Assembly: GCA_044340075.1 (NCBI GenBank)
Contig: JBIIUH010000001.1
Location: 1-55,922 of the forward strand
DNA length: 55,922 nucleotides
Direction of reading: 5' to 3'
From: Ilumatobacteraceae bacterium
GTDB taxonomy: Bacteria; Actinomycetota; Acidimicrobiia; Acidimicrobiales; Ilumatobacteraceae
Part shown: positions 3,784 to 29,069 of the stretch, in pieces
Layout of the letters: each line of letters opens with the position of its first letter
Position numbering within the stretch: the first letter of the stretch is position 1
Position numbers and translations under genes: made by a program
Notes under the pieces: generated by a model
What the model was told of the DNA's origin: nothing
Databases searched by the model: none
The model's input: only the letters and a program-made list of their open reading frames with translations

Positions 3784-3810
3784 CGCGACGTGACGTGCAC
3801 CGGCGGCGCG

Positions 3811-4257
3811 TCAGCGTCCGCTGTGCCCGAATCCCCCGCCGCGGTCGTCACCGCTCAATTCGTCGACGGGAATCCATTCGATGACGTCGTGGCGCAACAC
3901 GACGAGCTGAGCGACGCGATCACCGCGCTTCACCGCATAGTCCGTGTGCGGGTCGTGATTGATCATGACGACCTGCAACTCGCCCCGGTAGCCGGCATCG
4001 ATGATCCCGGGTGTATTCACGAGCGAGATGCCGTGCTTCAACGCAAGACCACTGCGCGGAACGACCATGCCGAGAGTTCCCACGGGGAGAGCGATGGCGA
4101 TTCCCGTCGGCACCGCGGCGCGACCGCCGGCAGCAGGAAGAACGACGTCGATGCGTGCGCGCAGATCGAATCCGGCATCGTGAACGTGCGCCGTTGAGGG
4201 CAGTTCGAGATCGGGATCGAGTCGCTGCACGTGCACACGGAGCGTCTCGCGGTTCAC
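3811..4257 (-). CDS. dut: dUTP diphosphatase
   Basis: 148 aa with dUTPase motifs [28 protein letters not shown] and C-terminal GGFGHSGR. Confidence 0.93.
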
Positions 4258-4291
4258 GGCACGACACTACGTCGCGCCGTAGATTCATGGG

Positions 4292-5896: not shown

Positions 5897-5962
5897 GTAC
5901 GTAGCGTACGAACGGCACGTACCGACAACGATCGACCGTCACGACAGCGGTACGGTGGGATC

Positions 5963-7018
5963 GTGTCGCAGGCGGTGAGCAAGCAGGAGAAACTCCCCGC
6001 CCGCACCGACGTCGTCGAGTTGGCACCGGGAGTCCTGCAAACACAGCTCCCCATCGAGCTTCCCGGACTCGGGCACGTGAACATGTACGTCCTCGAGGAC
6101 GGCGATGGCGTTGCCGTCGTCGATCCCGGCCTGCCCGGACGCGCGACGTGGAAGGCGATCAACCACCGCCTCGCGCTCATCGGTGTTCCGCTGCGCAGGG
6201 TGCACACGATCGTCGTCACGCACAGTCATCCCGACCACTTCGGCGGTGCACGACGACTCGCGCGCGAATCCGGTGCGCGCATCATCACCCACGCGAGCTT
6301 TCGCATGTGGTGGGACCCGCTCGAACCCGACGACATCGGACCGGAGGATCTCGCCACGGAAATGCTCCCCGAGAACCGTCGCACCTTCCGCGACACCCCG
6401 TGGGGCGGCGACGGCTATGACATCGCCTGGCGCAACCGGCTCTATTACTCGACGCACCGCAAGTACCCGCGACTCTTTCCGTCGGTGCAACCCACGCACC
6501 GGGTGAATGACGGTGACGCCGTCATGCTCGCAGGACGACGCTGGGTCGCCATGCACACCCCCGGCCACACGGGCGACCATCTGTGTCTCTTCGACGAGGA
6601 ATGCGGACTCGTCATCAGCGGCGACCACGTGCTGCCGAACATCACGCCTCATATCAGCGGGATGACGCTCGCCCGCGATCCGCTGAAGCGCTTCTTTGCC
6701 TCGCTCGACAAGATGGCCCGGCTCGGCGACACCGTGCGGCTCGCGCTTCCCGCCCACGGCAATCCGTTCAACGACCTCGCCGGACGCTGCACGCAGATTC
6801 GCGAGCATCACGAGGGCCGACTCGACAAGATCCGCAGTGCGAGCGTGGACTTCGGGCGCCCGGCGACGGTGATGGAGATTGCGTCGCGCGTGTTTTCCGC
6901 ACGAGCACAGGGGCCGATGGCCGACAGCGAAACGTACGCCCATCTCGAGCACCTGCGCCTCGCGGGTCAGATATCGCGACGCGACGTCGACGGACTCGCC
7001 CGCTACACCGTCGAGTAG
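5963..7018 (+). CDS. MBL-fold metallo-hydrolase
   Basis: C-terminal 351 codons of the 5573..7018 ORF with the THSHPDHFGG (HxHxDH) motif and a later TPGHTGDH. The start is uncertain (GTG 5963 or 5975). Confidence 0.8.
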   Translation: MSQAVSKQEKLPARTDVVELAPGVLQTQLPIELPGLGHVNMYVLEDGDGVAVVDPGLPGRATWKAINHRLALIGVPLRRVHTIVVTHSHPDHFGGARRLARESGARIITHASFRMWWDPLEPDDIGPEDLATEMLPENRRTFRDTPWGGDGYDIAWRNRLYYSTHRKYPRLFPSVQPTHRVNDGDAVMLAGRRWVAMHTPGHTGDHLCLFDEECGLVISGDHVLPNITPHISGMTLARDPLKRFFASLDKMARLGDTVRLALPAHGNPFNDLAGRCTQIREHHEGRLDKIRSASVDFGRPATVMEIASRVFSARAQGPMADSETYAHLEHLRLAGQISRRDVDGLARYTVE

Positions 7019-7032
7019 ATACCGACCGACGC

Positions 7033-7830
7033 TTACGCCGTCGGCGCGACGGTCGTGGCCGGCAACTGCACGATCTGTGTGAGGGCCGCCGTCTCATCGC
7101 CGTCGACGTGGCGCAGCACGGTCCGTCCCTCGAGGCGGTGCACTGCGATGAGCGGTTGCGCATGACGCTCGAGTGCACGGTGATGTTCGACCGTGAGGTG
7201 CAATGGCGCGCGCAACGACCTCTCGCCGGCGAGGTATTCCTCGACGGCTTCCCAGTACACGGCGTTGTTCACGTGACCGATCGCGTCGAAGTCGCTGAAC
7301 CGCAACGGCATCTCCCATGTCGCGTCCGCGCGTGCCGCAGGCGGAACGTCGCGCCCGACGTGGAGTCGCGCACCGATGCGCCGCGAGCCGGCGGCCTCTG
7401 CAACGACCTCGGCGAATCCGTGCGGCAACGGGGTCGGCTTCAACGTGTCGAGATCGACGTGCACCCACAACGTCGCTGCATCGGCAACGACGCGGGACGC
7501 TGCACCATCGACGATCGACACCCGGGTACGCCGTTCGGCCCAATGCGAACCGAGTCCACCGCACCACGTGGCGAGCCGCAGATGCTGCACGTACGACGGG
7601 AATTCGTACATCCACATCTCGGTGCGCCGCACGACCCATCCGTACGGGTCTTCGTACCCGCCGTCGAGCGCATCGTCGGTGGCAATGTCCTGCAGGTACC
7701 GGGCGAGGGCATCGAGTCGCAAGCGCGAGCGGGGTGTGACGTCACCGAGTCGAACGATTCGCTCGCTTGTGAAGACTCGGCCGCGTTGCGGATACGGCAC
7801 CGGATCTGCGACGACGAACACCACGATCAC
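7033..7830 (-). CDS. Acyl-ACP thioesterase-like (double hotdog)
   Basis: The C-terminal part of the 378-aa ORF matches the acyl-ACP thioesterase pattern (RLGDV..R.RLDALARYLQD, RFSDFDAIGHVNNAVYWE). Three in-frame GTGs (7830, 7824, 7821) are candidate starts. Confidence 0.7.
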   Translation of the reverse strand: MIVVFVVADPVPYPQRGRVFTSERIVRLGDVTPRSRLRLDALARYLQDIATDDALDGGYEDPYGWVVRRTEMWMYEFPSYVQHLRLATWCGGLGSHWAERRTRVSIVDGAASRVVADAATLWVHVDLDTLKPTPLPHGFAEVVAEAAGSRRIGARLHVGRDVPPAARADATWEMPLRFSDFDAIGHVNNAVYWEAVEEYLAGERSLRAPLHLTVEHHRALERHAQPLIAVHRLEGRTVLRHVDGDETAALTQIVQLPATTVAPTA

Positions 7831-13323: not shown

Positions 13324-14241
13324 TCAACGACGCGGGACGTCGTCTTCCTTGATCGCCGGCGCCTTGTCGAAGGCGCGCGTGACGTCATCGAACGTGAGCG
13401 CCGAGTTCGCCCGACGGTACGTCTGCTGTCCGTGGAACTGGGTGGTGAAACGACGGAACCACAGGAACACGATGATGCTCCACAGGAAGACGGTGCCGCC
13501 CGTCTTCATGATGGCCCCGGCGATCTGTTGGTCGACGGTCGCCGACAAACCCCACACACGGACCGTCACGTCGTAGTGCCTGTACACCACGCCCTCGGCG
13601 AAGGTGAGCCATGCCGCAGGGATCGTCGGAATCACCGACATGAGGAAGAGGTACACCATCCGACCGACGTACCCGACTCGCAGTGACGGCTCCGGCGACA
13701 CGACGGGGATCCACATCAGCAACGACGACGTCACGACGAGCACGTGCAACGTGTAGTGCAGGGGTCCGTTGCTCGCGCTCTGGTTGACGAGTGCAGGGAT
13801 GTGGGTGACGAGAACGACGACGTTGTACAGGAACCCCGCGATGACGGGGTGGGCGAACCAGCGCACCATGCGACCGACGACCGGGGTGTCGAACAACGCA
13901 CGGAAGAGCCACGCGGGGGTCGCCAGCAGTGCGAGCGGCGGAAGGAAGTACGACAGCGCCATGTGCTGGAACATGTGCACCGAGTAGAGGTATTCCTCGG
14001 CGATGTCGTGGATCGGCCAGTCGGACGCGATCCACAACACGGCGATGGCCGCCGCGAACAACCAGTTCTGGCGCCGCGTGACGACGGGTTCACCGCGGCG
14101 CAGGTGCTCGGCGTGCGGACCGATGACGCGAATGGCATACACGCGTGCGCCGATGAGGAACGCCACGAGCAACCACACCTCTGCATGGGCCTGGAAGCGC
14201 CACGGATCGAGGAGCGGGTTGGCGGCCTCGGCGAGGACCAT
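13324..14241 (-). CDS. ctaG: Cytochrome c oxidase assembly factor CtaG (Bacillus caa3_CtaG type)
   Basis: 305-aa polytopic protein with a HMFQHM motif. It is the last gene of the cta operon, 10 nt after ctaF. Confidence 0.8.
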   Translation of the reverse strand: MVLAEAANPLLDPWRFQAHAEVWLLVAFLIGARVYAIRVIGPHAEHLRRGEPVVTRRQNWLFAAAIAVLWIASDWPIHDIAEEYLYSVHMFQHMALSYFLPPLALLATPAWLFRALFDTPVVGRMVRWFAHPVIAGFLYNVVVLVTHIPALVNQSASNGPLHYTLHVLVVTSSLLMWIPVVSPEPSLRVGYVGRMVYLFLMSVIPTIPAAWLTFAEGVVYRHYDVTVRVWGLSATVDQQIAGAIMKTGGTVFLWSIIVFLWFRRFTTQFHGQQTYRRANSALTFDDVTRAFDKAPAIKEDDVPRR

Positions 14242-14251
14242 GTTGCCGACC

Positions 14252-14578
14252 TCAGCGAATGAAGAAGTGGAAGGTGGCGAGGAAGGCCACGTAGACGCCG
14301 ATCGCCAGCACCAGTCCCGAATAGAACAGGAAGCTGAAGATCTTGTTGTCGAACTTCAGGTGCATGAAGTAGCTGACGACGATGACGAACTTCGCGACCA
14401 TCATGATGAGCAGTGACGGCAGGAAGAACGGACCGAAGTCGACGTAATACGTCGCCACCTCGAGCGCCGTGATGAGCGCGAGGATGATCGCGATGTTGAC
14501 GTAGCCGCGGGTGCTCATGCCGTGCTCGGCATGATCCCCGGCTTCTTCGTGTGCGTGGGTATGTGTGTCGGTGCTCAT
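14252..14578 (-). CDS. ctaF: Cytochrome c oxidase subunit IV (prokaryotic CoxIV/CtaF, Bacillus type)
   Basis: 108-aa, 3-TM protein (YVNIAIILALITALEV..., MVAKFVIVVSYFMHLK). It starts 2 nt after the ctaE stop. Confidence 0.75.
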   Translation of the reverse strand: MSTDTHTHAHEEAGDHAEHGMSTRGYVNIAIILALITALEVATYYVDFGPFFLPSLLIMMVAKFVIVVSYFMHLKFDNKIFSFLFYSGLVLAIGVYVAFLATFHFFIR

Positions 14579-14580
14579 GA

Positions 14581-15168
14581 TCAGACCGGGATGAGGTAGA
14601 CGAGGGTGAAGATGATGATCCAGACGACGTCGACGAAGTGCCAGTACAGACCCAGCATTTCGACGGTTTCCGACTTGCTGCCGGGAACCTTGCTGCGCTT
14701 GTTGATGGCAACGAGGGCGAGCAACATGATGATGCCGACCGTCACGTGGACACCGTGGAATCCGGTGAGCGTGTAGAAGCTCGATCCGAAGAGGCTGGTG
14801 GAGAAGCCGAGACCTTCGTTGTAGAAGGCCGTGAACTCGTACACCTGGCCACCGACGAACGTCGCGCCGAGCATGGCGGTGACGACGAGCCACAGGTTCG
14901 TGCCTCGGTCGTCCTTCTTCGCCGCCGCCGACACCGCGAACACCATGGTGAGCGAGCTCATGAGCAGGACGAAACTGCTCACCGAGGTGAACGGGATGTC
15001 GAAGATCTGCGACGGGGTCGGCCCCTCCGACACGCGACCGCGATACAGCAGGTACGTGGAGATGAGACCGCCGAACAGGAGACACTCCGAGCCGAGGAAC
15101 ATCCACATGCCCAACTTGACGTTGGACAAACCGGTGGAGGTCTGATGTGCGTGGGCCGTATCAGCCAT
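14581..15168 (-). CDS. ctaE: Cytochrome c oxidase subunit III
   Basis: Starts at MADTAH. Motifs FYTLTGFHGVHVTVG and LYWHFVDVVW. 8-nt overlap with ctaD (ATGGCTGA). Confidence 0.92.
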   Translation of the reverse strand: MADTAHAHQTSTGLSNVKLGMWMFLGSECLLFGGLISTYLLYRGRVSEGPTPSQIFDIPFTSVSSFVLLMSSLTMVFAVSAAAKKDDRGTNLWLVVTAMLGATFVGGQVYEFTAFYNEGLGFSTSLFGSSFYTLTGFHGVHVTVGIIMLLALVAINKRSKVPGSKSETVEMLGLYWHFVDVVWIIIFTLVYLIPV

Positions 15169-17158
15169 GGTGTGCTCCGTGGCCGTTGTGGCCCGCTTCG
15201 TAGTCGGACTCCTCGGCCACCGACGGCTCGAGCGACCAGCCGTACATCGCGTACAGCAGGATCGCACCACCGACGATCGTGACGGGGAACGAATAGATGA
15301 GGCCGAGTGCGATCGGAATCAGCGAGAACGCAAGGACGATCGGCCAGTACGACGGTGACGGCATGTGGATGTTCGTGTCCGGGTTCTTCTCGAGATCCTC
15401 GAGCACCTTCTCCGCCGTTGCAACCTGCTTCATCGAATGCGTCGACGTGTCTTCCTCGTACTTGCGGTGGAAGAACTCGTCGAGGTGCTCGACGTGCGGG
15501 ATCGCATCGAAGTTGTGCTCCTTCGGCGGGTTCGACGTCATCCACTCGAGGCTGCGTGCGTTCCACGGATCGAGCGGCGCGCGCTCCTTCTTGCGAGCGG
15601 TCACCCAGATGTTGACGATGAAGAGAAGGACGCCGAGGGCGAGAACGAACGAACCAACGGTGGCGACGAGATTCCAGAACGCGAGGTTGAAGAATCCCTC
15701 ACCGGCGCGCGCTTCGGTCCAGATGTACATGCGCCGCGGCTGGCCCTGCAGACCGAGGATGTGCATCGGTCCGAAGGTGAGGTTCATACCGATGATCGTC
15801 AGCCAGAAGTTCCACGAACCGAGTCGTTCGGAAAGCATCTTTCCGAACATCTTCGGCCACCAGTAGTACATGCCGGAGAACAGACCGAGGATCGCGCCGC
15901 CGAACAGCACGTAGTGGAAGTGGGCGACGATGTAGTAGGTGTCGGTCTGCTGGGTGTCCGACGGGGCGATCGAGTGGGTGACACCCGACAGACCACCGAC
16001 GGTGAACAGGAAGACGAGACCGACGGCGTACTTCATCGCCGTCGTGAAGACGAGCTTGCCGCCCCACATCGTGAGCGTCCAGTTGATGATCTTCACGCCG
16101 GTGGGGATCGCAATGGCCATCGTCGCGACGGAGAAGACCGCCACCGACACCGGACCGAGACCGGAGGCGAACATGTGGTGCGCCCACACACCCCATCCGA
16201 CGAAACCGATCGCGGCTCCGGAGAAGACGACGAACGGATAGCCGAACAGCGGCTTGCGACTGAACACGGGGAGGACTTCGGAAATGATGCCGAACGACGG
16301 CAACACGAGGATGTACACCTCGGGGTGACCGAAGATCCAGAACAAGTGCTGCCACAGCAACGGGTCCGCACCGGCTGCAACGTCGAAGAACTGTGCGCCG
16401 AACACGCGCTGGAACATGAGCAGGAACAGCGCAACGGTGATGACCGGCATCGCGAAGAGCAGCAGGAACTGCACAACCGTCACCATCCAGGTGAACACGG
16501 GGATCTTCATCAACGTCATGCCCGGCGCGCGCATGTTCAGCACCGTGACGATGAGGTTGATCGCGCCCGTGAGGGACGCGATACCCGTGATCTGCAGGCC
16601 GAGGGCCCAGAAGTCGACGCCGTGGCTCGGCGAGAAGACGGGACCCGAGTTCGGCGCGTACATGAACCAGCCACCGTCGGCGGCTCCGCCGAGGAACCAC
16701 GACAGGTTGACGACGATTCCACCGGCGAGCAGGCACCAGAAACCGAACGCGTTGATGCGCGGGAATGCGACGTCACGGGCACCGATCTGCAGCGGGATGA
16801 AGTAGTTGGCGAATGCCGACGCCATCGGCATGACGAAGAGGAACACCATCGTCGTGGCGTGCATGGTGAACATCTGGTTGTACAGGTCGGCGTTGAGCAC
16901 CTTGCCGTCCGGTGCCGCGAGCTGCAGACGGATGAGCAGCGCCTCGATACCGCCGACGATGAAGAAGAACATCGCAAGCGCGCCGTACATGATGCCGAGC
17001 TTCTTGTGGTCGACGGTGAAGACCCACGACTTCCAGCCCGTGGAGGCGACGGGGCGCTTCAGCGCGCCGAAGGTGCGCGACGGGGTGATCTCGGCGGCAC
17101 CGGGCAGGAGCGCGGGCGTCGTGATCGTTCCCGGAGCGGGGCGTTCGATGATGGCCAT
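15161..17158 (-). CDS. ctaD: Cytochrome c oxidase subunit I (A-type, 14-TM Bacillus-like form)
   Basis: All canonical ligand motifs are present: TMHATTM (heme a His), WIFGHPEVY (CuB His plus cross-linked Tyr), WAHHMF and VAHFHYV. It also has a two-helix C-terminal extension (IHMPSPSYWPIVLAF...). Confidence 0.96.
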   Translation of the reverse strand: MAIIERPAPGTITTPALLPGAAEITPSRTFGALKRPVASTGWKSWVFTVDHKKLGIMYGALAMFFFIVGGIEALLIRLQLAAPDGKVLNADLYNQMFTMHATTMVFLFVMPMASAFANYFIPLQIGARDVAFPRINAFGFWCLLAGGIVVNLSWFLGGAADGGWFMYAPNSGPVFSPSHGVDFWALGLQITGIASLTGAINLIVTVLNMRAPGMTLMKIPVFTWMVTVVQFLLLFAMPVITVALFLLMFQRVFGAQFFDVAAGADPLLWQHLFWIFGHPEVYILVLPSFGIISEVLPVFSRKPLFGYPFVVFSGAAIGFVGWGVWAHHMFASGLGPVSVAVFSVATMAIAIPTGVKIINWTLTMWGGKLVFTTAMKYAVGLVFLFTVGGLSGVTHSIAPSDTQQTDTYYIVAHFHYVLFGGAILGLFSGMYYWWPKMFGKMLSERLGSWNFWLTIIGMNLTFGPMHILGLQGQPRRMYIWTEARAGEGFFNLAFWNLVATVGSFVLALGVLLFIVNIWVTARKKERAPLDPWNARSLEWMTSNPPKEHNFDAIPHVEHLDEFFHRKYEEDTSTHSMKQVATAEKVLEDLEKNPDTNIHMPSPSYWPIVLAFSLIPIALGLIYSFPVTIVGGAILLYAMYGWSLEPSVAEESDYEAGHNGHGAHHG

Positions 17159-17174
17159 GGTTCCCTTTCGATTC

Positions 17175-18383
17175 CTACTTCAGGGTGAGCAGATATGCGA
17201 CGAGCTTGTCGATATCGGATTCGGAGAGACCGAGGTTCGGCATGCCGCGAACCTTGCCGTTCGTCGGACCGAGCTGATCGGGGTTCGCATACATAGGCTT
17301 CACTTCGGGAGCGTTGCGCAACCACGCCCGCAGGTCGTTGACGTTGAGGCACTCCTCACCGACGCCGGCGAGGTACTTCTCGCCGAATTCCGCGGGTGAG
17401 GCGTTCCATACGCCGGGACGACAAGCCGGCGTGAGCAGGTCGAACATCGCTCCGGCGAAAGTGTTGCGGGTCATCAACTTCGTGAGGTTGGGTGCGGCAC
17501 CCGACCACACGTTCTCATCCGGCGCCGCGATTGCCAGCGTTCCGTCGGCGCGCTTCAGACCGTCGACCTGATGGCAGCGCACGCACTGGTTGAGGAACAC
17601 GCCTTCGCCCTCTTTGGCAAGCGAGCCCTCGGCCGGCGACACGTACGGTGCCTGCTGGTTGGCCACCCACTTCGCGAAGTCTTCCTTGCTCAGTGCGATC
17701 GCTTCCATGCGCATGTTCGCATGCGACAGACCACAGAACTCTGTGCACTGACCGGCGTAGATACCCGGCTCATCGGCCTCGAGGCGCAGGGTGTGGATGC
17801 GACCCGGAACGGCGTCACGCTTGCCGTTCAGCGCAGGGATCCAGTACGAGTGGATGACGTCGCGACTCGTTTCGCGCAGGAGCACCTTGGTACCCGCCGG
17901 GATGACGAGTTGACCGCTCGTCACGATCGGCTGGGCGATGCCGAACTCGTTCTGCACGGGATAGTCGTACTCCCACCACCACTGTTGGCCGGTGACGTTG
18001 ATGATCATTTCCGTGTCGTCGGTCTTCGCGAGATCGAAGATGACACGCACGGTGAACACACCGATCACGGCCAGGATCAGTGCAGGGATGAGCGTCAGGG
18101 TGATTTCGACGACCGGGTTGCCGTGCGTCTGCTCGGGAATCGGCTGACCACGGTCCTTGTAGCGCCACAACACCCAGCCGAGTGCGACGACGACGATGAG
18201 ACCGACAATGCCCGCCACCGCGAACACCGGCTTCTGGAGATCATCGATCATCTGGGCATTCGGACCCTTCGGCGCCCACGTGTCCTGCGGGGCGTTCTGC
18301 GCACACGATGCAGTGACGACGACACCGGTCAACAACGCACCGATTCGGGTGACGGTACGACGCAGGGAAGCGAGCTTGTTCAC
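17175..18383 (-). CDS. ctaC: Cytochrome c oxidase subunit II with fused C-terminal cytochrome c domain (caa3 type)
   Basis: Lipobox-like LTGVVVTASC, two TM helices, CuA site HSYW...CTEFCGLSHANM, heme c site CVRCH and distal GMPNL. Confidence 0.93.
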   Translation of the reverse strand: MNKLASLRRTVTRIGALLTGVVVTASCAQNAPQDTWAPKGPNAQMIDDLQKPVFAVAGIVGLIVVVALGWVLWRYKDRGQPIPEQTHGNPVVEITLTLIPALILAVIGVFTVRVIFDLAKTDDTEMIINVTGQQWWWEYDYPVQNEFGIAQPIVTSGQLVIPAGTKVLLRETSRDVIHSYWIPALNGKRDAVPGRIHTLRLEADEPGIYAGQCTEFCGLSHANMRMEAIALSKEDFAKWVANQQAPYVSPAEGSLAKEGEGVFLNQCVRCHQVDGLKRADGTLAIAAPDENVWSGAAPNLTKLMTRNTFAGAMFDLLTPACRPGVWNASPAEFGEKYLAGVGEECLNVNDLRAWLRNAPEVKPMYANPDQLGPTNGKVRGMPNLGLSESDIDKLVAYLLTLK

Positions 18384-19483
18384 GGTACGAACACCTCAAT
18401 GGACTGGCCGGTGAGACCGGCGACGAACAGGGAATACGGACCTCGGTCGATCGACGCCTTCGCATACGTCAGGGTGAGCGACTGCTCCGCACCCTCGGGG
18501 ATGAGCTGCGTGCACAACTCCTCGGGCTTCTCCGTCGCATCGGCGGCGGCCTTGCCCGGCGAGGCCACGAGGCGGAACTCACCTTCGTCGTAGTTGCGGA
18601 AGATGACGTTCACCGGGTTGGAGCGCTGAATGGTGATCGCCTGTGTCGGCGACTGCACACCGAACTCGTAGGCGGTCAGCTTGCCGTCGCGAAGTTCGAC
18701 GGTGGCAACGACGTTCGAACGCAACGACAGCGTGCGCATCTCGAGCTTGTCGAAGTACTTCGAGCGCTCCGGACCGCATTCACGGTGCGAGTAATGGCCC
18801 TCCGCGGCGGCCTCGACGAGGTCGGCGCGCAATCCGACGCCGGCGCTCGCAATTCCGCCGGCGACGATGCCGAGCGTGGCCAGGGTGCACAGGCCGGTGA
18901 CGATCGAGCGCTTCAGACCGGGACGCACGGCGAACAACGTGCCACCGACGAGAACGATCGTGCCGAACACGAGGAACAGGACGGCACCGGTGCTCTTCGA
19001 CACGGCGAGCATGATGCGCGAGAACGAGAAGATGACGACGCCGACGCCGAGGGTGGCGAGCACCGGGAACTCGATCGGATTGGCGATCCGCTTGCGGGTC
19101 GCGGCGTTGTACGCGGGATCGTCGGACGCCGATTCGCTCCACGACTGCACGGCCCACTCGATGAGACCTGCGAGGACGACGACGATGCCGAAGACGAACA
19201 CCGCGGAGCTCGTGATGAGACCGAGCGCGAGCAACACGACACCGACGACGGTGACGAGCGGCCACATGCTCGCCCCGACGAGTGCGGCATCGGCCGGCTG
19301 GGCCTCGTCGTCACCGTCGCGCACGATGATCGCGACGGCCGACAGACCGCACACGGCGGCAAAGACGATGCTCAGCGCCACTCCGCCGATCGCCAGGCGC
19401 TCGACGAACAACAGGTACGCGATGAGGGTGACGGCGTTGAGCGCCGCGAGCCCGATGAGGAACTTGGAACCCGTGCGAATCAT
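18380..19483 (-). CDS. 7-TM membrane protein with a C-terminal cupredoxin/subunit II-like domain lacking CuA ligands; function unknown
   Basis: ATG 19483 (MIRTGSKF) lies 8 nt after the upstream stop, and the stop overlaps the ctaC GTG (GTGA). About seven hydrophobic helices are followed by a ~150-aa beta-rich domain that aligns by eye to the CtaC CuA domain. Confidence 0.75.
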   Translation of the reverse strand: MIRTGSKFLIGLAALNAVTLIAYLLFVERLAIGGVALSIVFAAVCGLSAVAIIVRDGDDEAQPADAALVGASMWPLVTVVGVVLLALGLITSSAVFVFGIVVVLAGLIEWAVQSWSESASDDPAYNAATRKRIANPIEFPVLATLGVGVVIFSFSRIMLAVSKSTGAVLFLVFGTIVLVGGTLFAVRPGLKRSIVTGLCTLATLGIVAGGIASAGVGLRADLVEAAAEGHYSHRECGPERSKYFDKLEMRTLSLRSNVVATVELRDGKLTAYEFGVQSPTQAITIQRSNPVNVIFRNYDEGEFRLVASPGKAAADATEKPEELCTQLIPEGAEQSLTLTYAKASIDRGPYSLFVAGLTGQSIEVFVP

Positions 19484-19491
19484 CGATCGAC

Positions 19492-20097
19492 CTACTTCTG
19501 TACGTACACCACGAACCACACGGCGAGGAACATTCCGCCGAGTGCGTACCAATAAAGAGCGTGTGCGGCGAGAACGTCGTGGTCACCCATGCGCCCGGCC
19601 CACACGCGGAACAGTGCGACGAGGGAGTACACGACACCCGACACGATGAGCGCGAGCATCGTTCCGGTGACGGCGTAGAACAGCGTCTCGTAGGCGTCGT
19701 TGCGCAGCTCGAGTCCCATCTGCAGGTAGAGCGCGATTTGTGCGTTGACGAGTGCGAGACCGATCGCGGCGGTGATCGACAGGGCGAGGATCGTGTGCGA
19801 CCTGTCGGCGCGGCGGGCCGAGTAGACGGCCCATTGCGCCATGATGCACACCGCGACGAAGGTGATCATCATCGTGTTCGACGCCACTTCCGGCACCGCA
19901 ACGTCGGCCTTCAGCCAATCCTTGATCATCTTTGCGCCGTCGCTCGACGCGCGCAGCGGTGCCTTCGCACGGAAGTCGAGCCACATCGCGAGCATGCTGC
20001 CGATGAGCGCGGTTGCACCCGCGGCGGCGAATGCGGTCGCGACGAACACCGAACTGCGACGGCGAACGGGACCGGCGGTGAGTGCGGGAACGGTCAT
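19492..20097 (-). CDS. Heme-copper oxidase subunit III-like protein (divergent paralog)
   Basis: 201 aa with 5 predicted TM helices. FYAVTGTMLALIVSG and LYWYALGGMFLAVWFVVYV align with the CtaE motifs. ATGA overlap with the upstream gene. Confidence 0.8.
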   Translation of the reverse strand: MTVPALTAGPVRRRSSVFVATAFAAAGATALIGSMLAMWLDFRAKAPLRASSDGAKMIKDWLKADVAVPEVASNTMMITFVAVCIMAQWAVYSARRADRSHTILALSITAAIGLALVNAQIALYLQMGLELRNDAYETLFYAVTGTMLALIVSGVVYSLVALFRVWAGRMGDHDVLAAHALYWYALGGMFLAVWFVVYVQK

Positions 20098-21608
20098 TGC
20101 GCCACCTCTGCCGTGTCGTAGGGATTCGTCGTCGTCTCGGTGCCGCGCGAACGCGCACCGACGATCACGGCAACGGCGCCGAGCACCGCGAGCACCATCG
20201 CGAGATGGCCGAGTGCGGACACGCCGTTGAGGATTCCGCGCAGACCTGCATCGTCATGCCCGGTCGCCGTGGCGGCGGGCTGGTTGAGGAAGCCGGCAAC
20301 GTAATGCGGCAGGGCGGCGAGAACCACGGCGACGAAACCGAGCAGCGACACGCCGAGAACGGCTCCGGTGGGCAGGACACGCCGCCAGATCGCCGTCGAC
20401 CAATACGCAACGGCGCCGAATGCTCCGAGAACGCTGCCGTAGACGACGTAGACGAGGGCTGCTTCCGTGAACACGGTGCCCTGCAGGTCGGTGGTATCGA
20501 TCATCTGCACGGCGGTGCCGACGAGTCCGGTGAGGATCATGCCGACGCCGAGGAAAGCGGGGACGAACGGTGCCACGAGGCGCGGTGAACCGGCCTTCAG
20601 CGCGAGCAACGCGAGCGCGATGACGATGAGCGGCGCGAGCAGCGGCAACAGATGGAACAGCGCAAAGGGAACGAACGATCCGAGCGTCTCGCCGGGGGTG
20701 TCGCCGACGGTGAACGGGTGACTGCGCTGCGTCACGGAAGCGACGACGGCAACGGCGCAGAGCCCGATCCCGACGAGGACTCCGCCGCGCAGCGGTTGGC
20801 GGGTGCGGGCGGCGACGGCACCGAGGTGACCGAGCACACCGAGCGCGGGAGCGGCAAAGAGGAGCGACTGCGGCTGGTCGAAGAGCCAGGCCAACCACGA
20901 AGCCATGAGTCCGGTGCCGCCGAAGGCAACGCGGGCATTGGCGAAATCAACCCACAAATAGATGACCGTGCCGAGGGCGACGGGCATCGTGAGCACGAGG
21001 CCGACGGTCGACACGAGCACGGCGAAGACGAACACCGACACGGAGTCGAGGGTCGCACCGTTGCGCCGCGTCATCACCGTGGCGGCCAACGAGACGGCCG
21101 TGCACAGGATGCCGACGATGGCGATACCGAGACCGAGCAAGTACAACTCGACGGCGTCGGCGGTACCGCCGCCGGGTCCGCCGTTGGCGATGATCGACGC
21201 AACGACGAGCGCGCCACCGGCCGCCCACATCCAGAACCCGAACGATGCGAGTCGTACGAACGAGACGGTGGCTGCCTTGAGCAGCGAGGGCACGACGAGC
21301 AGTGCGACGCCGAGGAACAGAGGTGCGAGGACACCGAGTACGAGGGCGTAGTGGTACAAGCCGAACAACTGCACGTGTGCACCGGTATCGACGAGTGCAG
21401 CTCCGGCGTCCATGCGCTCGGCGCCGAGCAACGCGCCGAGGACGGCGGCGAGCAACAGCCACACCCCGGTCAATCCGAGGTAGAGGCGGCCGAGGCGAGC
21501 GTGATCAGCAACGGTGAACCACGCCGCAAGGCGGGTGACGGCTGAGGGCTCGTCGGCGACGGGGCGAGACAAAGAAGATGCGTCGGCGACAGACATGATC
21601 ACCGGCAA
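20094..21608 (-). CDS. Heme-copper oxidase subunit I-like protein lacking CuB and heme a3 ligands (divergent paralog)
   Basis: 504-aa polytopic protein collinear with CtaD ([48 protein letters not shown]). The start is uncertain (TTG 21608, GTG 21602 or ATG 21596). Confidence 0.85.
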
Positions 21609-21663
21609 GGCTACTCAGAACCGCCCGATTGACCGAACCTCCGCAACCGTTCGGTGTGCCGAA

Positions 21664-22602
21664 CTAGCGCACGAGCACGTCGACGGTGATCGCCACCCCG
21701 ATGAGCGTCACGTAGGAGATGGAGTAGCTGAACACGCGCATCGCCGCCGCCGGCGTGGGTGCGTCACCCAGACGGTACGTGACGACGATGAAGAGCACAC
21801 CGAGCACGACGGCGGCAATCCCGTAAATGACACCCATGTCGGCAACGGGAATGAGCGCGAACGAGCACGCGCACACGACGAGGGTGTACGCACCCATCGT
21901 GCGCACCGTGCGGGCGAGGCTGACGACCACGGGGAGCATCGGCACCGACGCGGCGCGGTAGTCGTCGACGTGGCGAATCGCCAGCGCCCAGAAGTGCGGC
22001 GGGGTCCAGAAGAAGATGAAGAGAAAGAGGATGACCGGGGCCCAGTCGAGACGGCCGGTGACGGCTGCCCAGCCGACGAGAACGGGAACGGCACCCGCTG
22101 CCCCACCGATGACGATGTTCTGACGCGACGTGCGCTTCAACCACAGCGTGTAGATGCCGATGTAAAAGGCGGTCGCCGACAACGCCAGACATGCGGCGAG
22201 CAGGTTGGATGTCGTCCACAGCACGGCAAACGCGGCGACCTCGAGTGCGACGGCGAAGACGAACGCCGCGCGCGGACTCACCATGCCGGTGACGAGCGGT
22301 CGATGCCGCGTGCGCTCCATGAGCGCATCGATGTCGCGGTCGACGAACATGTTCAGCGCGTTGGCACCGCCAGCGGCAAGTGCACCGCCGACCACCGTCC
22401 ACACGACCAGCCACGTCGACGGCCACTCGCCTGCTGCAAGCACCATCGTCGGCACCGTCGTGATGAGGAGCAACTCGATGATCCGTGGCTTCGTCAGCGC
22501 CACGTATGCACCGATGCGCGAACGCGGAGCGCCCGTTCCCGTGTGGGTGAACGCGCGACGACCCAGCCGCGACGGAACCAACGGGCGGCGTCCGAGCATC
22601 AC
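21664..22602 (-). CDS. ctaB: Protoheme IX farnesyltransferase (heme O synthase)
   Basis: UbiA-family motifs YVALTKPRI and [20 protein letters not shown]. 9-TM profile. Confidence 0.93.
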
Positions 22603-22641
22603 GCCGAAAGGCTACGAGGGCCCCGACGGCACAATGGAGCC

Positions 22642-22959
22642 GTGGTCGCAGCGCGCACGTTCACCAATCGCACCGACACCCTGCCCGCCGACACGACGAC
22701 GACCGACACCACCGAGTCGCACGACTCACCGTGGGTCGTCATCGTGTGGAACGACCCGATCAACCTCATGTCCTACGTCACGTGGGTGCTGCAGAAACTG
22801 TTCGGCTATTCGTTGGAAAAAGCGACGGCACTGATGCTCGACGTCCACGAAAAAGGTCGTGCGGTCGTGTCCAACGGGTCGCGCGAGAAGGCGGAGTTTG
22901 ACGTCCACCGGTTGCACGAGCACGGCTTGTGGGCGACGATGCAAAAGGACGACGCGTGA
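22642..22959 (+). CDS. clpS: ATP-dependent Clp protease adaptor ClpS
   Basis: The C-terminal core [26 protein letters not shown]...HEKG.A is diagnostic. GTG 22642 is the nearest plausible in-frame start, so the start is uncertain. Confidence 0.88.
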
Positions 22960-23432
22960 TCGAACGCGTCGGCGACTCGTACCGCATCGTGCTCGACGAC
23001 ACGAGTCGCGCGGTGCTCACGACGGTGCTCGGCGAACTGCGCGACGAGATCACCACCGGCACCGGTGGTCACCTCACCCGACTCTTCCCCGTCGCGTACC
23101 ACGCCGATCCCGTCGCCGACGACGAGTTCCGGCGTTTGATGCACGACGACCTCGCCGCTTCACACCTCGCCGCTCTCGAGACGACCATCACCATGCTCGG
23201 ACGTCACGATGATCTTGGTGCGGAGGAGGTCGAGGCACTCATGCGCTCACTCAACGCAACGCGCCTCGTCCTCGGCACGATCCTCGACGTCACCGACGAC
23301 GATGCCGACGATGAAGAAGAGGACGACCGCGATGCCGACGGGATGGCAGATCACCGACGGCTGTACGCCTTCCTCGGCTGGGCGCTCGGCCACACGCTCG
23401 ACGTTCTCGGTAGCGACCCGACGGGACGCTGA
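22956..23432 (+). CDS. DUF2017-domain protein (conserved partner of actinobacterial clpS)
   Basis: GTG 22956 overlaps the clpS stop (GTGA). The acidic C-terminal tail and the position downstream of clpS are typical of DUF2017. Confidence 0.75.
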
Positions 23433-25059: not shown

Positions 25060-26393
25060 GACGCCGCTCCACCCGGGGCGGTATCGATCGCATCGACGGC
25101 CCGACCCGAGTGACGCACGACGCGGGCGAGGTCGAATGCGTCGGCAATGCGCTCGTCGGACAACACACCGCGGACGCGGGGGTCACCGGCGACGACCGCT
25201 CGGAAATCATCACCGCTCGCGCCGCCGGGGACGGACAACTCCTGCACCAGTTCCTGAACCAGTCGGTACGCATCGTCGCGCGACATCCCCGCTTCGACGA
25301 GCGCGAGGAGCAGCGACTGGGAAAATACGAGACCACCGGTGAGGCCGAGGTTCTCGTGCATCCGTTCGGCGCGCACCTCGAGACCGGAAATAAGGCGGGT
25401 GAGTCGGCGCACCACGTAGTGCGCGAGATGCGCGGAATCGGGAATAACGATCCGCTCGGCGGAGGAATGCGTGATGTCGCGCTCGTGCCACAGGGCGACA
25501 TTGCCGAGACCGGCCTGCAGATTCGATCGCAGCACCCGCGACAAGCCGGTGAGCGTTTCGGCGGAGATCGGGTTGCGCTTGTGCGGCATCGCCGACGAAC
25601 CCTTCTGCCCGCGCCCGAAACCCTCGCGCACCTCGTCGACCTCCGTGCGCTGCAGATGTCGCAGCTCGATCGCGATGCTCTCGACGGTGGTCCCGATGCT
25701 CGCGCACGCCCACAGGAACTCTGCGTGTCGGTCACGCGCGATCACCTGCGTCGCCGGCACGGCACGCAATCCCATCGCCACCGCGACGTGTGCCTCGACG
25801 CGCGGATCGACGTTCGAGTACGTACCGACCGCGCCCGACAACTTGCACACCGAGATGCCGTCGCGCGCCGCACGCAGACGCACCCGATCGCGGCCGACCT
25901 GCAACGCCCACAACGCCACCTTCGCACCGAACGTCGTCGGTTCGGCATGAATGCCGTGCGTGCGGCCGACCATGACGGTGTCGCGGTGCTTGCGGGCGAG
26001 ATCCGACGCGACCGAGAAGAGTTCGCCGAGTGCAGAGTCGATGACGTCACATGCATCGCGCAGCATCGAGCACCATGCCGTGTCGACGACGTCACTGCTC
26101 GTGAGGCCGTGGTGCAACCAGGCACCGTGCGGCATGCCGATGCGTTCCTGCAGGACGTCGACGAACGCCGCGACGTCGTGATTCGTCACTTCCTCGCGCT
26201 GCAACACGGCCGCAACGAATCCGCCGTCGACGTACGGTGCGCGTTGCCGACACTCACGTGCTGCATCGGCGGGAACTGCGCCGACGAGTGCCTGTGCATC
26301 GAGTGCATGCAACTCGACGTCGAGGTACCGGGAAAACCGCGCCGTGTCCGAGAAGATCGCGGTCATTTCGGGCGTCGAATACCTATCGATCAC
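25056..26393 (-). CDS. purB: Adenylosuccinate lyase
   Basis: 445 codons from GTG 26393 (VIDRYSTPEM). Fumarate-lyase signature GSSAMPHKRNP. GTGA overlap with the purA stop. Confidence 0.95.
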   Translation of the reverse strand: MIDRYSTPEMTAIFSDTARFSRYLDVELHALDAQALVGAVPADAARECRQRAPYVDGGFVAAVLQREEVTNHDVAAFVDVLQERIGMPHGAWLHHGLTSSDVVDTAWCSMLRDACDVIDSALGELFSVASDLARKHRDTVMVGRTHGIHAEPTTFGAKVALWALQVGRDRVRLRAARDGISVCKLSGAVGTYSNVDPRVEAHVAVAMGLRAVPATQVIARDRHAEFLWACASIGTTVESIAIELRHLQRTEVDEVREGFGRGQKGSSAMPHKRNPISAETLTGLSRVLRSNLQAGLGNVALWHERDITHSSAERIVIPDSAHLAHYVVRRLTRLISGLEVRAERMHENLGLTGGLVFSQSLLLALVEAGMSRDDAYRLVQELVQELSVPGGASGDDFRAVVAGDPRVRGVLSDERIADAFDLARVVRHSGRAVDAIDTAPGGAAS

Positions 26394-27661
26394 GACCGCA
26401 CCACGCAATCGTCTCGCTCCGGGCCGACACCGACGATCGACACGGGAACACCGACGTGCCGTTCGACGATCTCGAGCAAATGACGCGCCGCGGCGGGCAG
26501 ATCCGCATCCTTGCGACAGTGACGCAGCGCCGTACGCCATCCCGGCAGTTCCTCCCACACGCATTCGACCTTGTCGAGCACCCGCGCGTCGTCGGGATAC
26601 CCGTCGAGGTCCTTTCCATCGAGGCGGTAACCGGTGCACACGCGGATCGTGTCGAAATCGTCGAGGACGTCGAGTTTCGTGAGTGCGATGTCGGTGAGCG
26701 AGTTCACGCGCACGGCGTGACGCAACATGACGAGGTCCAACCACCCGGGTCGGCGGCGACGGCCCGTCACCGTGCCGAACTCGGCGCCGATCTCGACGAT
26801 GCGATCGCCCACGTCTCCGAACACTTCTGTCGGAAACGGTCCACTGCCGACGCGCGTCGTGTACGCCTTGGCAATACCGACGACGCGATCGATGTGACGC
26901 GGTCCGATACCCGATCCGGTGCACGCACCACCCGCCGTCGGACTGCTCGACGTGACGTACGGATACGTGCCGTGATCGAGATCGAGGAACGTCGCCTGCG
27001 CACCCTCGAGAAGGATCGGGTGACGCGCATCGAGCATGTCGTGGAGCAGATTCACCGTGTCGGCGAGATACGGAACGAGACGGCGACCGAGCGCGTCGAA
27101 CGTCGCGACGATGGATGCGATGTCGAGCGGTTCGGCACCGAGTGCAACCAGACGCGCACTTTCCCATTCGGCACGCTCGCGCACGATGCGGCGGAAGTCG
27201 GCGGCGTCGCGCACCGCTGCGGCGCGCACCCCGACGCGCTGCGCCTTGTCGGCGTACGCGGGTCCGATGCCCTTCAGCGTCGTACCGATCTTCGCCTCAC
27301 CGCGCGACGACTCGGCGAGTGCATCGTGGCGCTGGTGCCACGGGAAGATGAGGTGTGCCAATGACGACACCTTCAAGCGCGCGCACGACACGCCCCTCGA
27401 CTCGAGACGGTCGATTTCCTCGAACAAGGTGACGAGATCGACGACGACGCCGTTGCCGATCACCGGAACAACGTGGTCGTACAGCACGCCGCTCGGCACG
27501 AGCTGCAGGGCGTAGCGCTCCGAACCGACGACGACGGTGTGCCCGGCGTTGTGTCCGCCCTGGTAGCGAACGACCGCATCGTGCGAACGGGCCAGCAGAT
27601 CGATGACCTTGGCTTTGCCCTCATCCCCCCACTGGGTACCCACGACGACGGTGACGGGCAT
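26390..27661 (-). CDS. purA: Adenylosuccinate synthetase
   Basis: Starts at MPVTVVVGTQWGDEGKAKVID (P-loop), followed by GGHNAGHT and GIGPAYADK motifs. Confidence 0.96.
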   Translation of the reverse strand: MPVTVVVGTQWGDEGKAKVIDLLARSHDAVVRYQGGHNAGHTVVVGSERYALQLVPSGVLYDHVVPVIGNGVVVDLVTLFEEIDRLESRGVSCARLKVSSLAHLIFPWHQRHDALAESSRGEAKIGTTLKGIGPAYADKAQRVGVRAAAVRDAADFRRIVRERAEWESARLVALGAEPLDIASIVATFDALGRRLVPYLADTVNLLHDMLDARHPILLEGAQATFLDLDHGTYPYVTSSSPTAGGACTGSGIGPRHIDRVVGIAKAYTTRVGSGPFPTEVFGDVGDRIVEIGAEFGTVTGRRRRPGWLDLVMLRHAVRVNSLTDIALTKLDVLDDFDTIRVCTGYRLDGKDLDGYPDDARVLDKVECVWEELPGWRTALRHCRKDADLPAAARHLLEIVERHVGVPVSIVGVGPERDDCVVRS

Positions 27662-27737
27662 TGACGCTCCTATAGATGAGGGACGTGGAACAACGCTACC
27701 CGTCGCACGAGCACATCGCATCGCTAGTTTCATTCGT

Positions 27738-29069
27738 ATGAGTGCAGTGATGCGTCGCGTGCACTGGGCGAGTGCCGGCAACGACGTGCGTCGCACGATC
27801 ACCGATCGGGGTCTGCGCGACATCGTCGACGACTCCCTGCGCCGCGACGTCGTCGCCCTCGTCGACGACGTGCAGAAGCGCGGCGACGATGCCGTGCTCG
27901 AGGCGACGCGGCGCTTCGACGGCATCGATCTGGGCAGCGCCGAACGCTTGCGGGTGAGCGACGCGGAGATTGCCGAGGCACGCGTCGATCCGGCGCTCGA
28001 TGCCGCACTCGCCGACGCCATCGACCACGTGCAGCGGTTCAACGAAGCGGTGCTCGCGCGCCACGGCGACTGGTCGATGACGATCGAGCCCGGTGCAACG
28101 GTCGGGGAAAAGGTGTCGGCGATCGACTCGGTCGGCTTGTTCGTACCCGGCGGAAAGGCGAGCTACCCGTCGGTCGCCTATCAGCTCGCCGTGCCCGCCG
28201 TCGTCGCGGGTGTCGGTCGCATCTCGCTGCTCGTGCCACCGCTGCCGAACGGCAACGGAGCCGTCGATCCCGCCGTGCTCGTCGTTGCGCGAATGCTCGG
28301 CATCACCGACGTCTTCCGCGCCAACGGCCCTGCCGGCATCGCTGCACTCGGTTTTGGTACGCGCAGCATTCCCGCCGTGCGCAAGATCGTCGGTCCGGGC
28401 TCCCCCGCCGTCACGATCGCGCAGGTCGAAATGCAACGGCACGGAATCGCCACGATGATGGTGCTCGGTCCGACGGAGAGCATGCTCATTGCATCGCGTG
28501 AGTCCGATCCACGGCGTGCGGCGCTCGACCTGCTCATCGAAGCAGAACACGGTGAGGACTCGACGGTCTTTCTCGTGTGCGACGACGCCCCGACGATCGA
28601 CACCATTGATGCGCATCTCGCCCGGTTCATGGGTGAGATGCCCGAGATCCGCCGCGCCGCGGCGCACGCATCGCTCGGTCGCAACGGCGGTGCGATCCTC
28701 GTCGATTCACCCGCCGATGCAGCTGCCGTCGCCAACGACTTCGCGCCGGAGCACCTGCAGATCGCCTTCGACGGCGCACGCGCCGACGACCTCATCGCAG
28801 CGATTCACCACGCCGGCGAGATCCTCGTCGGTCAGGACACGCCGTTCAGTGCCGCGAACTTCGTGCTCGGCTGCCCGGCGTCGCTTCCGACGAGCGGCTT
28901 CGCGAAGGTGTCGTCGGGAATCACCGTCGATGCATTCCTCAAGCGCACGGCAATCGCCCGTGCCGATGCAACGGCACTCGCACGGATGTCACCGACGATC
29001 ACGACGCTCGCCGACCACGAGGGTTTCCACGCCCACTCGATGGCGATCCGCCGCCGTCCGGCGAAATAA
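27738..29069 (+). CDS. Histidinol dehydrogenase-family oxidoreductase (divergent; substrate uncertain)
   Basis: Collinear with HisD (GGKASYPS, GPGSPAV, LIEAEHG, APEHL, EGFHAHS), but several canonical HisD motif residues differ (see findings). Confidence 0.8.
   Translation: MSAVMRRVHWASAGNDVRRTITDRGLRDIVDDSLRRDVVALVDDVQKRGDDAVLEATRRFDGIDLGSAERLRVSDAEIAEARVDPALDAALADAIDHVQRFNEAVLARHGDWSMTIEPGATVGEKVSAIDSVGLFVPGGKASYPSVAYQLAVPAVVAGVGRISLLVPPLPNGNGAVDPAVLVVARMLGITDVFRANGPAGIAALGFGTRSIPAVRKIVGPGSPAVTIAQVEMQRHGIATMMVLGPTESMLIASRESDPRRAALDLLIEAEHGEDSTVFLVCDDAPTIDTIDAHLARFMGEMPEIRRAAAHASLGRNGGAILVDSPADAAAVANDFAPEHLQIAFDGARADDLIAAIHHAGEILVGQDTPFSAANFVLGCPASLPTSGFAKVSSGITVDAFLKRTAIARADATALARMSPTITTLADHEGFHAHSMAIRRRPAK

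Follow-up and report, generated by a model that had tools for sequence, protein, structure and literature searches.

A cofactor-less paralogue of the heme-copper oxidase core inside the caa3 oxidase gene array of Acidimicrobiia

A second oxidase-like gene set between ctaB and ctaC

Why would a bacterium carry, in the middle of its terminal oxidase genes, three further genes that look like parts of another oxidase? The question is raised by a stretch of 55,922 nucleotides (nt) from an Ilumatobacteraceae bacterium (GenBank assembly GCA_044340075.1, contig JBIIUH010000001.1, positions 1 to 55,922; hereafter the window), in which nine open reading frames (ORFs) at 13324-22602, all on the minus strand, follow one another in the order ctaB, I', III', X, ctaC, ctaD, ctaE, ctaF and ctaG. 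The three genes between ctaB and ctaC, which we call I', III' and X, make up an insert of about 3.2 kb, and the same interval is occupied in all 85 related loci that we compared. A previous reading of the window, made from the sequence alone, had described a nine-gene, single-strand array with an insert at this place, and all nine ORFs are indeed there.

We conclude that the trio is an ancient paralogue of the A-family oxidase core without cofactor sites, and that it is co-oriented with, and always adjoins, a functional caa3 oxidase. Its make-up of a subunit I, a subunit III and a putatively CtaF-like protein means that it is the counterpart of subunit I together with a subunit III split in two, with no subunit II. 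The explanation that we rate most likely, at somewhat better than an even chance for the joint statement including its observed parts, is that this cofactor-less core paralogue acts as a structural partner of the caa3 oxidase. I', III' and X would join in 1:1:1 proportion to form a redox-inactive membrane subcomplex, a "pseudo-oxidase", made from the same transcript as the caa3 oxidase. Its role would be that of a scaffold, of a docking adaptor (e.g. to the bc complex) or of a platform for assembly, and not that of an oxygen reductase.

I' has the fold of subunit I and none of its cofactor sites

I' (20094..21608, minus strand) is a subunit I paralogue with 12 transmembrane helices. It matches PF00115 with 100.9 bits over profile positions 1-413 of 436, compared to 512.8 bits for the neighbouring ctaD, and scores 117.7 bits with TIGR02891, which is below the cut-off of 670.75. 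The two proteins are 24% identical over all twelve helices, and hhalign relates I' to the ctaD family with a probability of 99.9%. The AlphaFold model of I', built with a 39-sequence alignment, has a mean predicted local distance difference test (pLDDT) value of 89.5 and a predicted template modelling score (pTM) of 0.90, and Foldseek aligns it to A-family subunit I structures over about 500 columns with a template modelling score (TM-score) of about 0.8. According to this model, I' retains the complete 12-helix A-family subunit I fold.

Heme-copper oxidases have six invariant histidines, two for heme a, one for heme a3 and three for CuB. When I' from the window is aligned to ctaD with MAFFT, these six columns hold Tyr, Gln, Gln, Arg, Ala and Val. 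The helix II His is a Tyr, the helix X HxH is AxV, and GHPEVY has become DQPQSL, so that the CuB His and Glu286 are both Gln and the cross-linked Tyr is Leu. The His pair of WAHHMF is Gln-Arg by MAFFT and Ser-His by BLASTP, which leaves one His that is one column off, and the pair is unconserved in the family. The D-channel Asp is Thr, the Asn of FPRxN is Ala, the K-channel Lys is Val, and the Arg-Arg pair that binds the heme propionates is Ala-Thr.

We then looked at the ligand columns in 102 full-length I' representatives clustered at 50% identity, with the ctaD of the window as reference, and none of the six histidines is conserved in the family. The first CuB His column is Gln in 51 of the 102 representatives and His in 5, the second is Gln in 73, and the Glu286 column is Gln in 55. 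The K-channel Lys column is Val or Leu, the D-channel Asp column is Thr, Ser or Ala, and the Arg pair is gone. The family has invariant residues peculiar to itself, namely an NGGPGGG loop, Glu64-Arg65, Asp221, Arg274, Glu382 in helix X, and Gln443. The sequence-only reading had noted a subunit I-like gene without catalytic residues, and both the pairwise and the family alignments agree with it. It had also called the extra genes degenerate, which is apt for the cofactor sites but not for the genes themselves, which are intact and under selection.

These substitutions bear on whether I' could still be an active, non-canonical oxygen or nitric oxide (NO) reductase with unconventional ligands. 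Heme-copper oxidase relatives with altered active sites do exist, the NO reductase (NOR) families being the example, and a minority of I' members keep heme histidines, with an intact type-1 copper site in the X protein of one of them (locus L082, see below). In the window clade, however, the six histidines and the Tyr are all absent and replaced by residues such as Gln, Ala, Val and Leu, the propionate-binding Arg pair is lost, the TIGR02891 score of 117.7 is far from 670.75, and there is no subunit II-like electron entry, with neither a CuA nor a heme c motif in X. For this clade we regard an active reductase as effectively excluded.

III' is a subunit III paralogue and X is a membrane protein of mixed character

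III' (19492..20097, minus strand; 201 amino acids) is a paralogue of the 5-helix, CtaE-like subunit III, and its start overlaps the I' stop (ATGA). Five hydrophobic segments can be seen in it, its PF00510 match of 28.2 bits is above the cut-off of 23.8, and hhalign gives a probability of 97% to the ctaE family over 160 columns, which bears out the earlier description of a III-like gene. With the actinobacterial model NF050119 (aa3_CtaE_Actin) it reaches 42 bits, below the cut-off of 190. Five hypothetical signature proteins of 226, 130, 99, 194 and 185 amino acids have been listed as specific to Acidimicrobiia (PMC5962788, Table 2); the 194-residue protein (WP_015798164.1) is of the size of III' and may be III'.

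X (18380..19483, minus strand) is a 367-residue membrane protein with about seven transmembrane helices and an extracytoplasmic beta domain; its N-terminus is predicted to be inside and its C-terminus outside, from hydropathy and the positive-inside rule. No Pfam or NCBIfam model covers X, and its homologues are all annotated "hypothetical". Residues 6-116 (19136..19468) form a four-helix region that resembles the actinobacterial subunit IV (CtaF, PF12270) in profile matches. A profile of 14 diverse X membrane domains has as its top four PDB matches chains that are all named "cytochrome c oxidase polypeptide 4" (9wcx_m, 2.3e-4; 7q21_F, 8e-4; 8hcr_H, 2e-3; 6adq_H, 1.3e-2), covering 5-126 of 139 residues, and these structures are from mycobacterial and corynebacterial supercomplexes. 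PF12270 is matched by 10 of the 14 membrane domains, with a best E-value of 6.5e-4 and all of them below the gathering score, and X of the window itself has no PF12270 match. This is a weak signal that the N-terminal four helices of X may be CtaF-like. X proteins are 262-380 amino acids long, while a stand-alone CtaF has about 140; X has three more helices and, in the window clade, a 110-residue ectodomain.

In X, conservation is centred on the membrane part. Its most conserved motif, EWxxQxWSExxSxDxxxNxxxRxRxxxPxExP, is in a predicted cytoplasmic loop at residues 109-140 (19064..19159) and is kept over 71 sequences down to about 32% identity, including the short forms of X. The C-terminal residues 256-367 (18383..18718) are predicted by AlphaFold and Foldseek to be a cupredoxin-fold domain without copper ligands. 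Only in this domain does the AlphaFold model of X reach a pLDDT of 70-86, the membrane part being below 50. The top Foldseek matches of the domain are all cupredoxins, with weak E-values of 5e-4 to 1e-2, and the caa3 subunit II 2yev_B ranks 14th. Neither a CuA motif (H...CxExCxxxHxxM) nor a type-1 ligand motif is present in the domain, which has one conserved Cys (CTQLIPxGAEQ) and no conserved His or Met, and X contains no heme c motif. Among the forms with the cupredoxin domain, two cysteines, Cys236 and Cys324, are conserved and may be a disulfide pair. L081, L083, L084 and L085 lack the domain, and in L082 a genuine type-1 copper domain (H...FCDVPGHRDAGM) takes its place.

The third extra gene had been taken for a subunit II-like gene, and this part of the sequence-only reading does not hold. 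Comparison with subunit II gave BLASTP E-values of 1 or more, no Pfam or NCBIfam match and an hhalign probability of 2% with a 62-sequence ctaC family; the N-terminus may rather be CtaF-like, and the predicted cupredoxin fold is optional and missing in deeper relatives. We also considered that the cupredoxin domain in the window is a degenerate version of the type-1 copper domain of L082, a likeness visible by eye, but neither hhalign nor hmmsearch gave a signal.

The trio is conserved across Acidimicrobiia and under purifying selection

A scan of a genome collection found I' relatives in 174 species-level genomes, from which 80 loci were kept, and five further contigs of distant members brought the set to 85. 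The taxon labels that we use are from the record titles of metagenome-assembled genomes (MAGs), several of which are plainly wrong, and the gene starts in related loci are estimates. Nearly all of the 80 loci have a label of Ilumatobacteraceae, Acidimicrobiia or Actinomycetota, and among all 85 every credible label is Acidimicrobiia or Actinomycetota. Wherever a locus is long enough to tell, tblastn mapping places ctaB-I'-III'-X-ctaC-ctaD-ctaE-ctaF-ctaG on one strand in this order, and the order is unchanged in the five contigs of distant members. In one of these, L084, the wider neighbourhood is also that of the window (DUF2017-clpS, the array, ABC-2, serS), and L085 differs from this neighbourhood only by a GDPD/fn3/SLH protein in place of ctaG. 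The synteny comparison of the ctaB-ctaC interval that the sequence-only reading had proposed therefore finds the trio in all 85 loci, and an array with the same gene order in all of them is not a chance juxtaposition.

Several of the public labels are unreliable. The records of L001, L004, L051, L053-L055, L059, L060 and L077 are titled "uncultured Bifidobacterium sp.", "Bifidobacterium breve" or "Ferrithrix thermotolerans DSM 19514 isolate ...", and such misleadingly titled MAGs have up to 94-99% protein identity to the window.

The I' family is considerably larger than the set of loci. In an exhaustive profile search of 1.84 billion cluster representatives we found at least 150 clusters at 50% identity, each scoring at least 215 bits, where a genuine subunit I would reach about 150 bits. 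The labelled distant members that we looked up are Acidimicrobiales or Acidimicrobiia MAGs.

It had been recognized from the start that the three genes could be a decaying, lineage-specific tandem duplicate. Their low scores with oxidase models would fit decay, as would their faster evolution, with a median identity to the window of 45-55% for the trio compared to 74-82% for ctaC, ctaD and ctaE. Yet among assessable cases the ORFs are intact for I' in 79/79, for III' in 78/79 and for X in 69/72. Two split X copies are both in MFD-series MAGs and are the only such copies; L056 has a split ctaD as well, so the split copies point to assembly frameshifts. Compared with three close relatives, the ratio of nonsynonymous to synonymous substitution rates (dN/dS) is 0.07-0.14 for I', 0.03-0.09 for III' and 0.07-0.22 for X, which is far below 1 and within the range of ctaB, ctaF and ctaG (ctaG, 0.06-0.13). 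The trio is present throughout the class with invariant motifs of its own, is conserved across Acidimicrobiia and is under purifying selection, and we consider decay refuted.

The identity of I' falls to 38% across loci while its linkage to ctaC-G stays unbroken (85/85). It tracks the identity of ctaB and ctaG (r = 0.95-0.97) more closely than that of ctaC, ctaE and ctaF (r = 0.72-0.77); these correlations are dominated by phylogeny, and we do not count them as evidence.

Distant relatives may record the order of cofactor loss

Three distant I' proteins (P0411, P0456 and P0483) retain the His of helix II and the HxH of helix X, have no CuB His, and are found in the same gene context. The existence of relatives with three heme histidines and no CuB histidine suggests a stepwise loss in this module, in which CuB would have gone first and the hemes later. 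The I' homologues at L081 721-2346, L083 1445-3079 and L082 434-2041 keep the heme ligands and lack the CuB histidines and the Arg pair, which makes them candidates for oxidase-superfamily members that carry heme but no copper.

In L082 the I' protein is P0483, with its three heme histidines, and X (2629-3669, plus strand) ends in the intact type-1 (blue) copper domain. Right after X, on the opposite strand (3683-4069, minus), is a second cupredoxin, a lipoprotein (FYCDIREHREAGM). The L082 version of the module may still be redox-active.

Coupling of the trio and its possible roles

All eight junction lengths given in the sequence-only reading are reproduced from the sequence: from ctaB to ctaG they are 55, -4, 8, -4, 16, -8, 2 and 10 nt. 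The first of them depends on the start of I'. An ATG at 21596 (500 amino acids, Shine-Dalgarno GGTGA) is a more likely start than the TTG at 21608 (504 amino acids) and agrees with public gene calls such as P0001, and with this start the ctaB-I' gap is 67 nt rather than 55.

Across the related loci (78 for the I'/III' overlap, with medians over loci for the other junctions), the median gap is 89 nt from ctaB to I', where it is never 20 nt or less, -4 nt for I'/III', and 8 nt from III' to X, where it is at most 20 nt in 99% of loci. From X to ctaC the median is 49 nt, and 23% of loci have 20 nt or less. Within the oxidase genes the medians are 12 nt from ctaC to ctaD, -8 nt for ctaD/ctaE, 3 nt from ctaE to ctaF and 21 nt from ctaF to ctaG. 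Judging by these spacings, I', III' and X are a tightly coupled block of their own nearly everywhere, and the overlap of X with ctaC is specific to the window clade. The idea that translational coupling ties the trio to the real oxidase is thus only partly upheld: the trio is coupled internally, and in the window X overlaps ctaC, but this overlap is clade-specific and the gap is usually wider.

Promoters or terminators that isolate the three genes from the cta genes had been named as evidence to look for. Consensus scans for sigma-70-type sites and intrinsic terminators, a weak test for Actinomycetota, found no promoter-like or terminator-like site in any junction. In L068, opposite-strand genes part ctaB from the trio, which is still joined to ctaC-G. 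The intervening genes (3982-7733, minus strand) encode a 909-residue LAL/LuxR-type regulator (AAA_16, TPR, GerE) and a 341-residue ORF without a family, and this arrangement is seen in one Acidimicrobiales MAG.

The position next to ctaB also fits an assembly module, that is, an oxidase-shaped membrane chaperone that would hold apo-CtaD, or the heme O or heme A newly made by CtaB and CtaA, until maturation and would be absent from the finished enzyme. The trio comes directly after ctaB, ctaA is next door on the opposite strand in deeper Acidimicrobiales, the assembly factor gene ctaG is in the same array, the architecture of the heme pocket is broadly kept in I', and some relatives keep heme-ligating histidines. 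However, I' of the window type lacks a conserved axial ligand at both heme sites as well as the Arg pair, while known heme a chaperones such as Surf1 use a conserved His (cf. PMC9145763). In L068 it is ctaB and not ctaC-G that is parted from the trio, and a full set of I-, III- and IV-like proteins far exceeds the needs of known assembly factors. We consider an assembly module rather unlikely.

The trio might also have left oxidase biology altogether, its scaffold being re-used as a transporter, a channel or a sensor (of ions, copper, heme or oxygen) that is merely co-transcribed. The invariant polar residues of the I' family, which lie outside oxidase chemistry, and the conserved motif of X (EWxxQxWSE...RxR...PxExP) could be read in this way. 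Linkage to ctaC-G in 85/85 loci, with I' down to 38% identity, would be unusual for functionally independent genes, though, and we found neither a transporter-like family nor a defence-like context. Such an unrelated function seems improbable to us.

This brings us back to a structural partner of the caa3 oxidase, against which several points have to be weighed. The X-ctaC gap is usually 20-50 nt, and the ctaB-I' gap, with its median of 89 nt, could hold an internal promoter, so the stoichiometry of trio to caa3 is not fixed by the gene layout. The scan for promoters and terminators covers sigma-70-type consensus sites only. Since ctaB and ctaG are themselves assembly genes, membership in the array cannot separate a structural from an assembly role, and the whole case for co-assembly with the caa3 or bc complex is the order of the genes. 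X resembles CtaF only weakly (E-values of 1e-2 to 2e-4, below the Pfam gathering score), and the AlphaFold model is poor in the membrane part of X (pLDDT below 50), a part from which we conclude nothing. A stronger version of the structural-partner reading is that the trio is an obligatory, stoichiometric structural block, for example a caa3-bc docking adaptor that works through its CtaE/CtaF-like face, with the intermediates that have hemes but no CuB, at times with a blue-copper X, recording the stepwise conversion of an enzyme into a scaffold; this version we hold only tentatively, as possible and on the doubtful side.

The genuine caa3 oxidase genes

The remaining genes of the array, all on the minus strand, encode a genuine caa3 set. 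The ctaC gene (17175..18383), whose GTG start overlaps the stop of X, encodes a subunit II whose CuA motif is intact and to which a cytochrome c (CVRCH) is fused, matching PF00116, PF02790 and PF00034, and TIGR02866 with 191 bits, above the cut-off. Residues ~15-27 of this protein read LLTGVVVTASCAQ, a lipobox-like motif, and subunit II is probably a lipoprotein, as in other Gram-positive bacteria. The catalytic subunit I is encoded by ctaD (15161..17158; 665 amino acids), which has all ligands and scores 512.8 bits with PF00115 and 687.2 bits with TIGR02891 (cut-off 670.75). It is followed by ctaE (14581..15168), a subunit III of the 5-helix type (PF00510, 79 bits), by ctaF (14252..14578), a Bacillus-type small subunit IV of the COX4_pro family (PF03626, 37.6 bits; cut-off 28.9), and by ctaG (13324..14241), a caa3-type assembly factor (Caa3_CtaG, PF09678, 137.7 bits).

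We noted that ctaD has a C-terminal two-helix extension at residues 599-644 (window 15227-15364), which brings the total to 14 helices. It resembles the hairpin of actinobacterial subunit IV, with a weak PF12270 match and an hhalign probability of 74% to residues 68-113 of X. By this likeness, the active oxidase also has a CtaF-like element fused to subunit I, besides the COX4_pro ctaF.

The gene content agrees with the Bacillus-type caa3 backbone described in the sequence-only reading: ctaC with CuA and CxxCH, ctaD with all ligands, COX4_pro and Caa3_CtaG. The further notion of a Bacillus-type oxidase in an actinobacterial genome stands for the operon content and not for the ancestry of subunit I, because ctaD is about equally close to mycobacterial CtaD and Bacillus QoxB. 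The I' profile is likewise closest to B. subtilis QoxB and mycobacterial CtaD. We considered a Bacillus-like foreign oxidase beside a native trio and found nothing that would set their origins apart: ctaD and the I' profile rank PDB oxidases alike, with mycobacterial CtaD about level with B. subtilis QoxB.

Genomic setting of the array

The first gene of the array, ctaB (21664..22602, minus strand), encodes heme O synthase (NF003349, 386.5 bits, cut-off 246; PF01040 UbiA, 1e-65). It is divergent from clpS on the plus strand (PF02617 match at 22690-22959), and the region between them (22603..22689) is the sole candidate site for an operon promoter; a scan for sigma-70-type sites found no sigma-70 consensus there. 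One flank of the array has serS and an ABC-2 transporter, and the other has clpS-DUF2017, purA, clpB, dnaJ, dnaK, dnaB and ribosomal protein genes. Given these core housekeeping genes and the even GC content across the window (61-68%), the array sits in the chromosome backbone and not in an island. The nearest public loci, with 82-99% protein identity, are Ilumatobacteraceae MAGs, one of them from Lake Mendota.

The clpS-DUF2017 pair (window 22603-23432) is divergent from ctaB here and in distant Acidimicrobiales (L084 7088-8865; L085 2225-4268). In L084 and L085, ctaA, encoding heme A synthase, is found between clpS and ctaB on the opposite strand, and there is a partial match at the contig edge of L083. 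Neither the window nor the flanks of the 80 closer Ilumatobacteraceae-type loci contain ctaA, and with none in the window the heme A synthase of this organism must be encoded elsewhere. The window also has no bc-complex genes.

Two other genes in the window deserve a remark. A 759-residue protein encoded at 37978-40257 (plus strand) has a nitrate-reductase-gamma-like membrane domain, 4Fe-4S dicluster motifs and two CCG (HdrD-like) domains, and looks like a membrane-bound heterodisulfide-reductase-like oxidoreductase. In the longest ORF for adenylosuccinate synthetase (26390-28042, minus strand), about 131 residues precede the Pfam domain, and the true start is probably internal.

Why the family was overlooked and what it implies

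We consider the trio a pseudo-enzyme derivative of the heme-copper oxidase core. We found no description of it in the literature searched, which was the open-access literature, with most subscription journals outside its reach. Heme-copper oxidases are defined by their ligand set, and surveys normally discard sequences without that set. In public records the trio proteins are named "cbb3-type cytochrome c oxidase subunit I" or "hypothetical", and no curated model accepts I' or III' as an equivalog. Ligand-based surveys and misleading annotation would explain how a large family, with at least 150 clusters and members in 174 species-level genomes, was overlooked. As a consequence, metabolic reconstructions of Acidimicrobiia, including those of lake Ilumatobacteraceae MAGs, may over-count terminal oxidases, and the I' family needs its own model and name to end its annotation as an oxidase.

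If the trio is a structural partner of the caa3 oxidase, a whole enzyme core would have become a non-catalytic scaffold, intermediate stages of that change would still be available for study, and this would point to a novel supercomplex architecture in a deep actinobacterial lineage. If it is a supercomplex adaptor, it would be the first pseudo-enzyme copy of complex IV within a respiratory supercomplex.

Comparison with known systems

The closest known systems are the A-family cores themselves, that is, the actinobacterial aa3 oxidase (CtaD/CtaE/CtaF) and the caa3 and aa3-600 oxidases of B. subtilis. The order I'-III'-X mirrors ctaD-ctaE-ctaF and the folds are shared, but the trio lacks the ligands of heme and copper, the residues of the proton channels and a partner of the subunit II kind. 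X differs by three extra helices and an optional cupredoxin domain, and scores are far below the curated equivalog cut-offs. With the Bacillus-type caa3 operon, the array has in common the fused cytochrome c on subunit II, COX4_pro and Caa3_CtaG; in that operon ctaC comes directly after ctaB, whereas here three genes lie between them.

Non-catalytic relatives of oxidase subunits are known from other operons. NorE and other stand-alone COX3-like proteins are accessory membrane proteins in NO reductase operons. They are subunit III homologues that serve as accessories, as III' may, but they are nor-linked and have no dead copy of subunit I beside them. In cytochrome bd, CydB is a duplicated catalytic subunit without redox ligands that has become an obligatory structural partner encoded beside the active copy. 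In archaea, CydA', a cofactor-poor paralogue of CydA, is likewise reported to be kept as a partner (bioRxiv 10.1101/2021.01.16.426971). Like I', CydB and CydA' are ligand-poor paralogues of a catalytic subunit that adjoin the active copy; however, cytochrome bd belongs to another superfamily, involves one subunit only and has a demonstrated partnership, while here a three-protein core is involved and we infer the partnership.

For the docking role, the relevant comparison is the mycobacterial and corynebacterial III2IV2 supercomplex. The M. smegmatis counterpart of subunit III is CtaE taken together with CtaF, and these two provide the main QcrB contact (PMC8361435). The trio has homologues of exactly those docking subunits, the CtaF one as a putative match. 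In contrast to that supercomplex, the array in the window encodes an active oxidase of the caa3 type, which brings a cytochrome c domain of its own.

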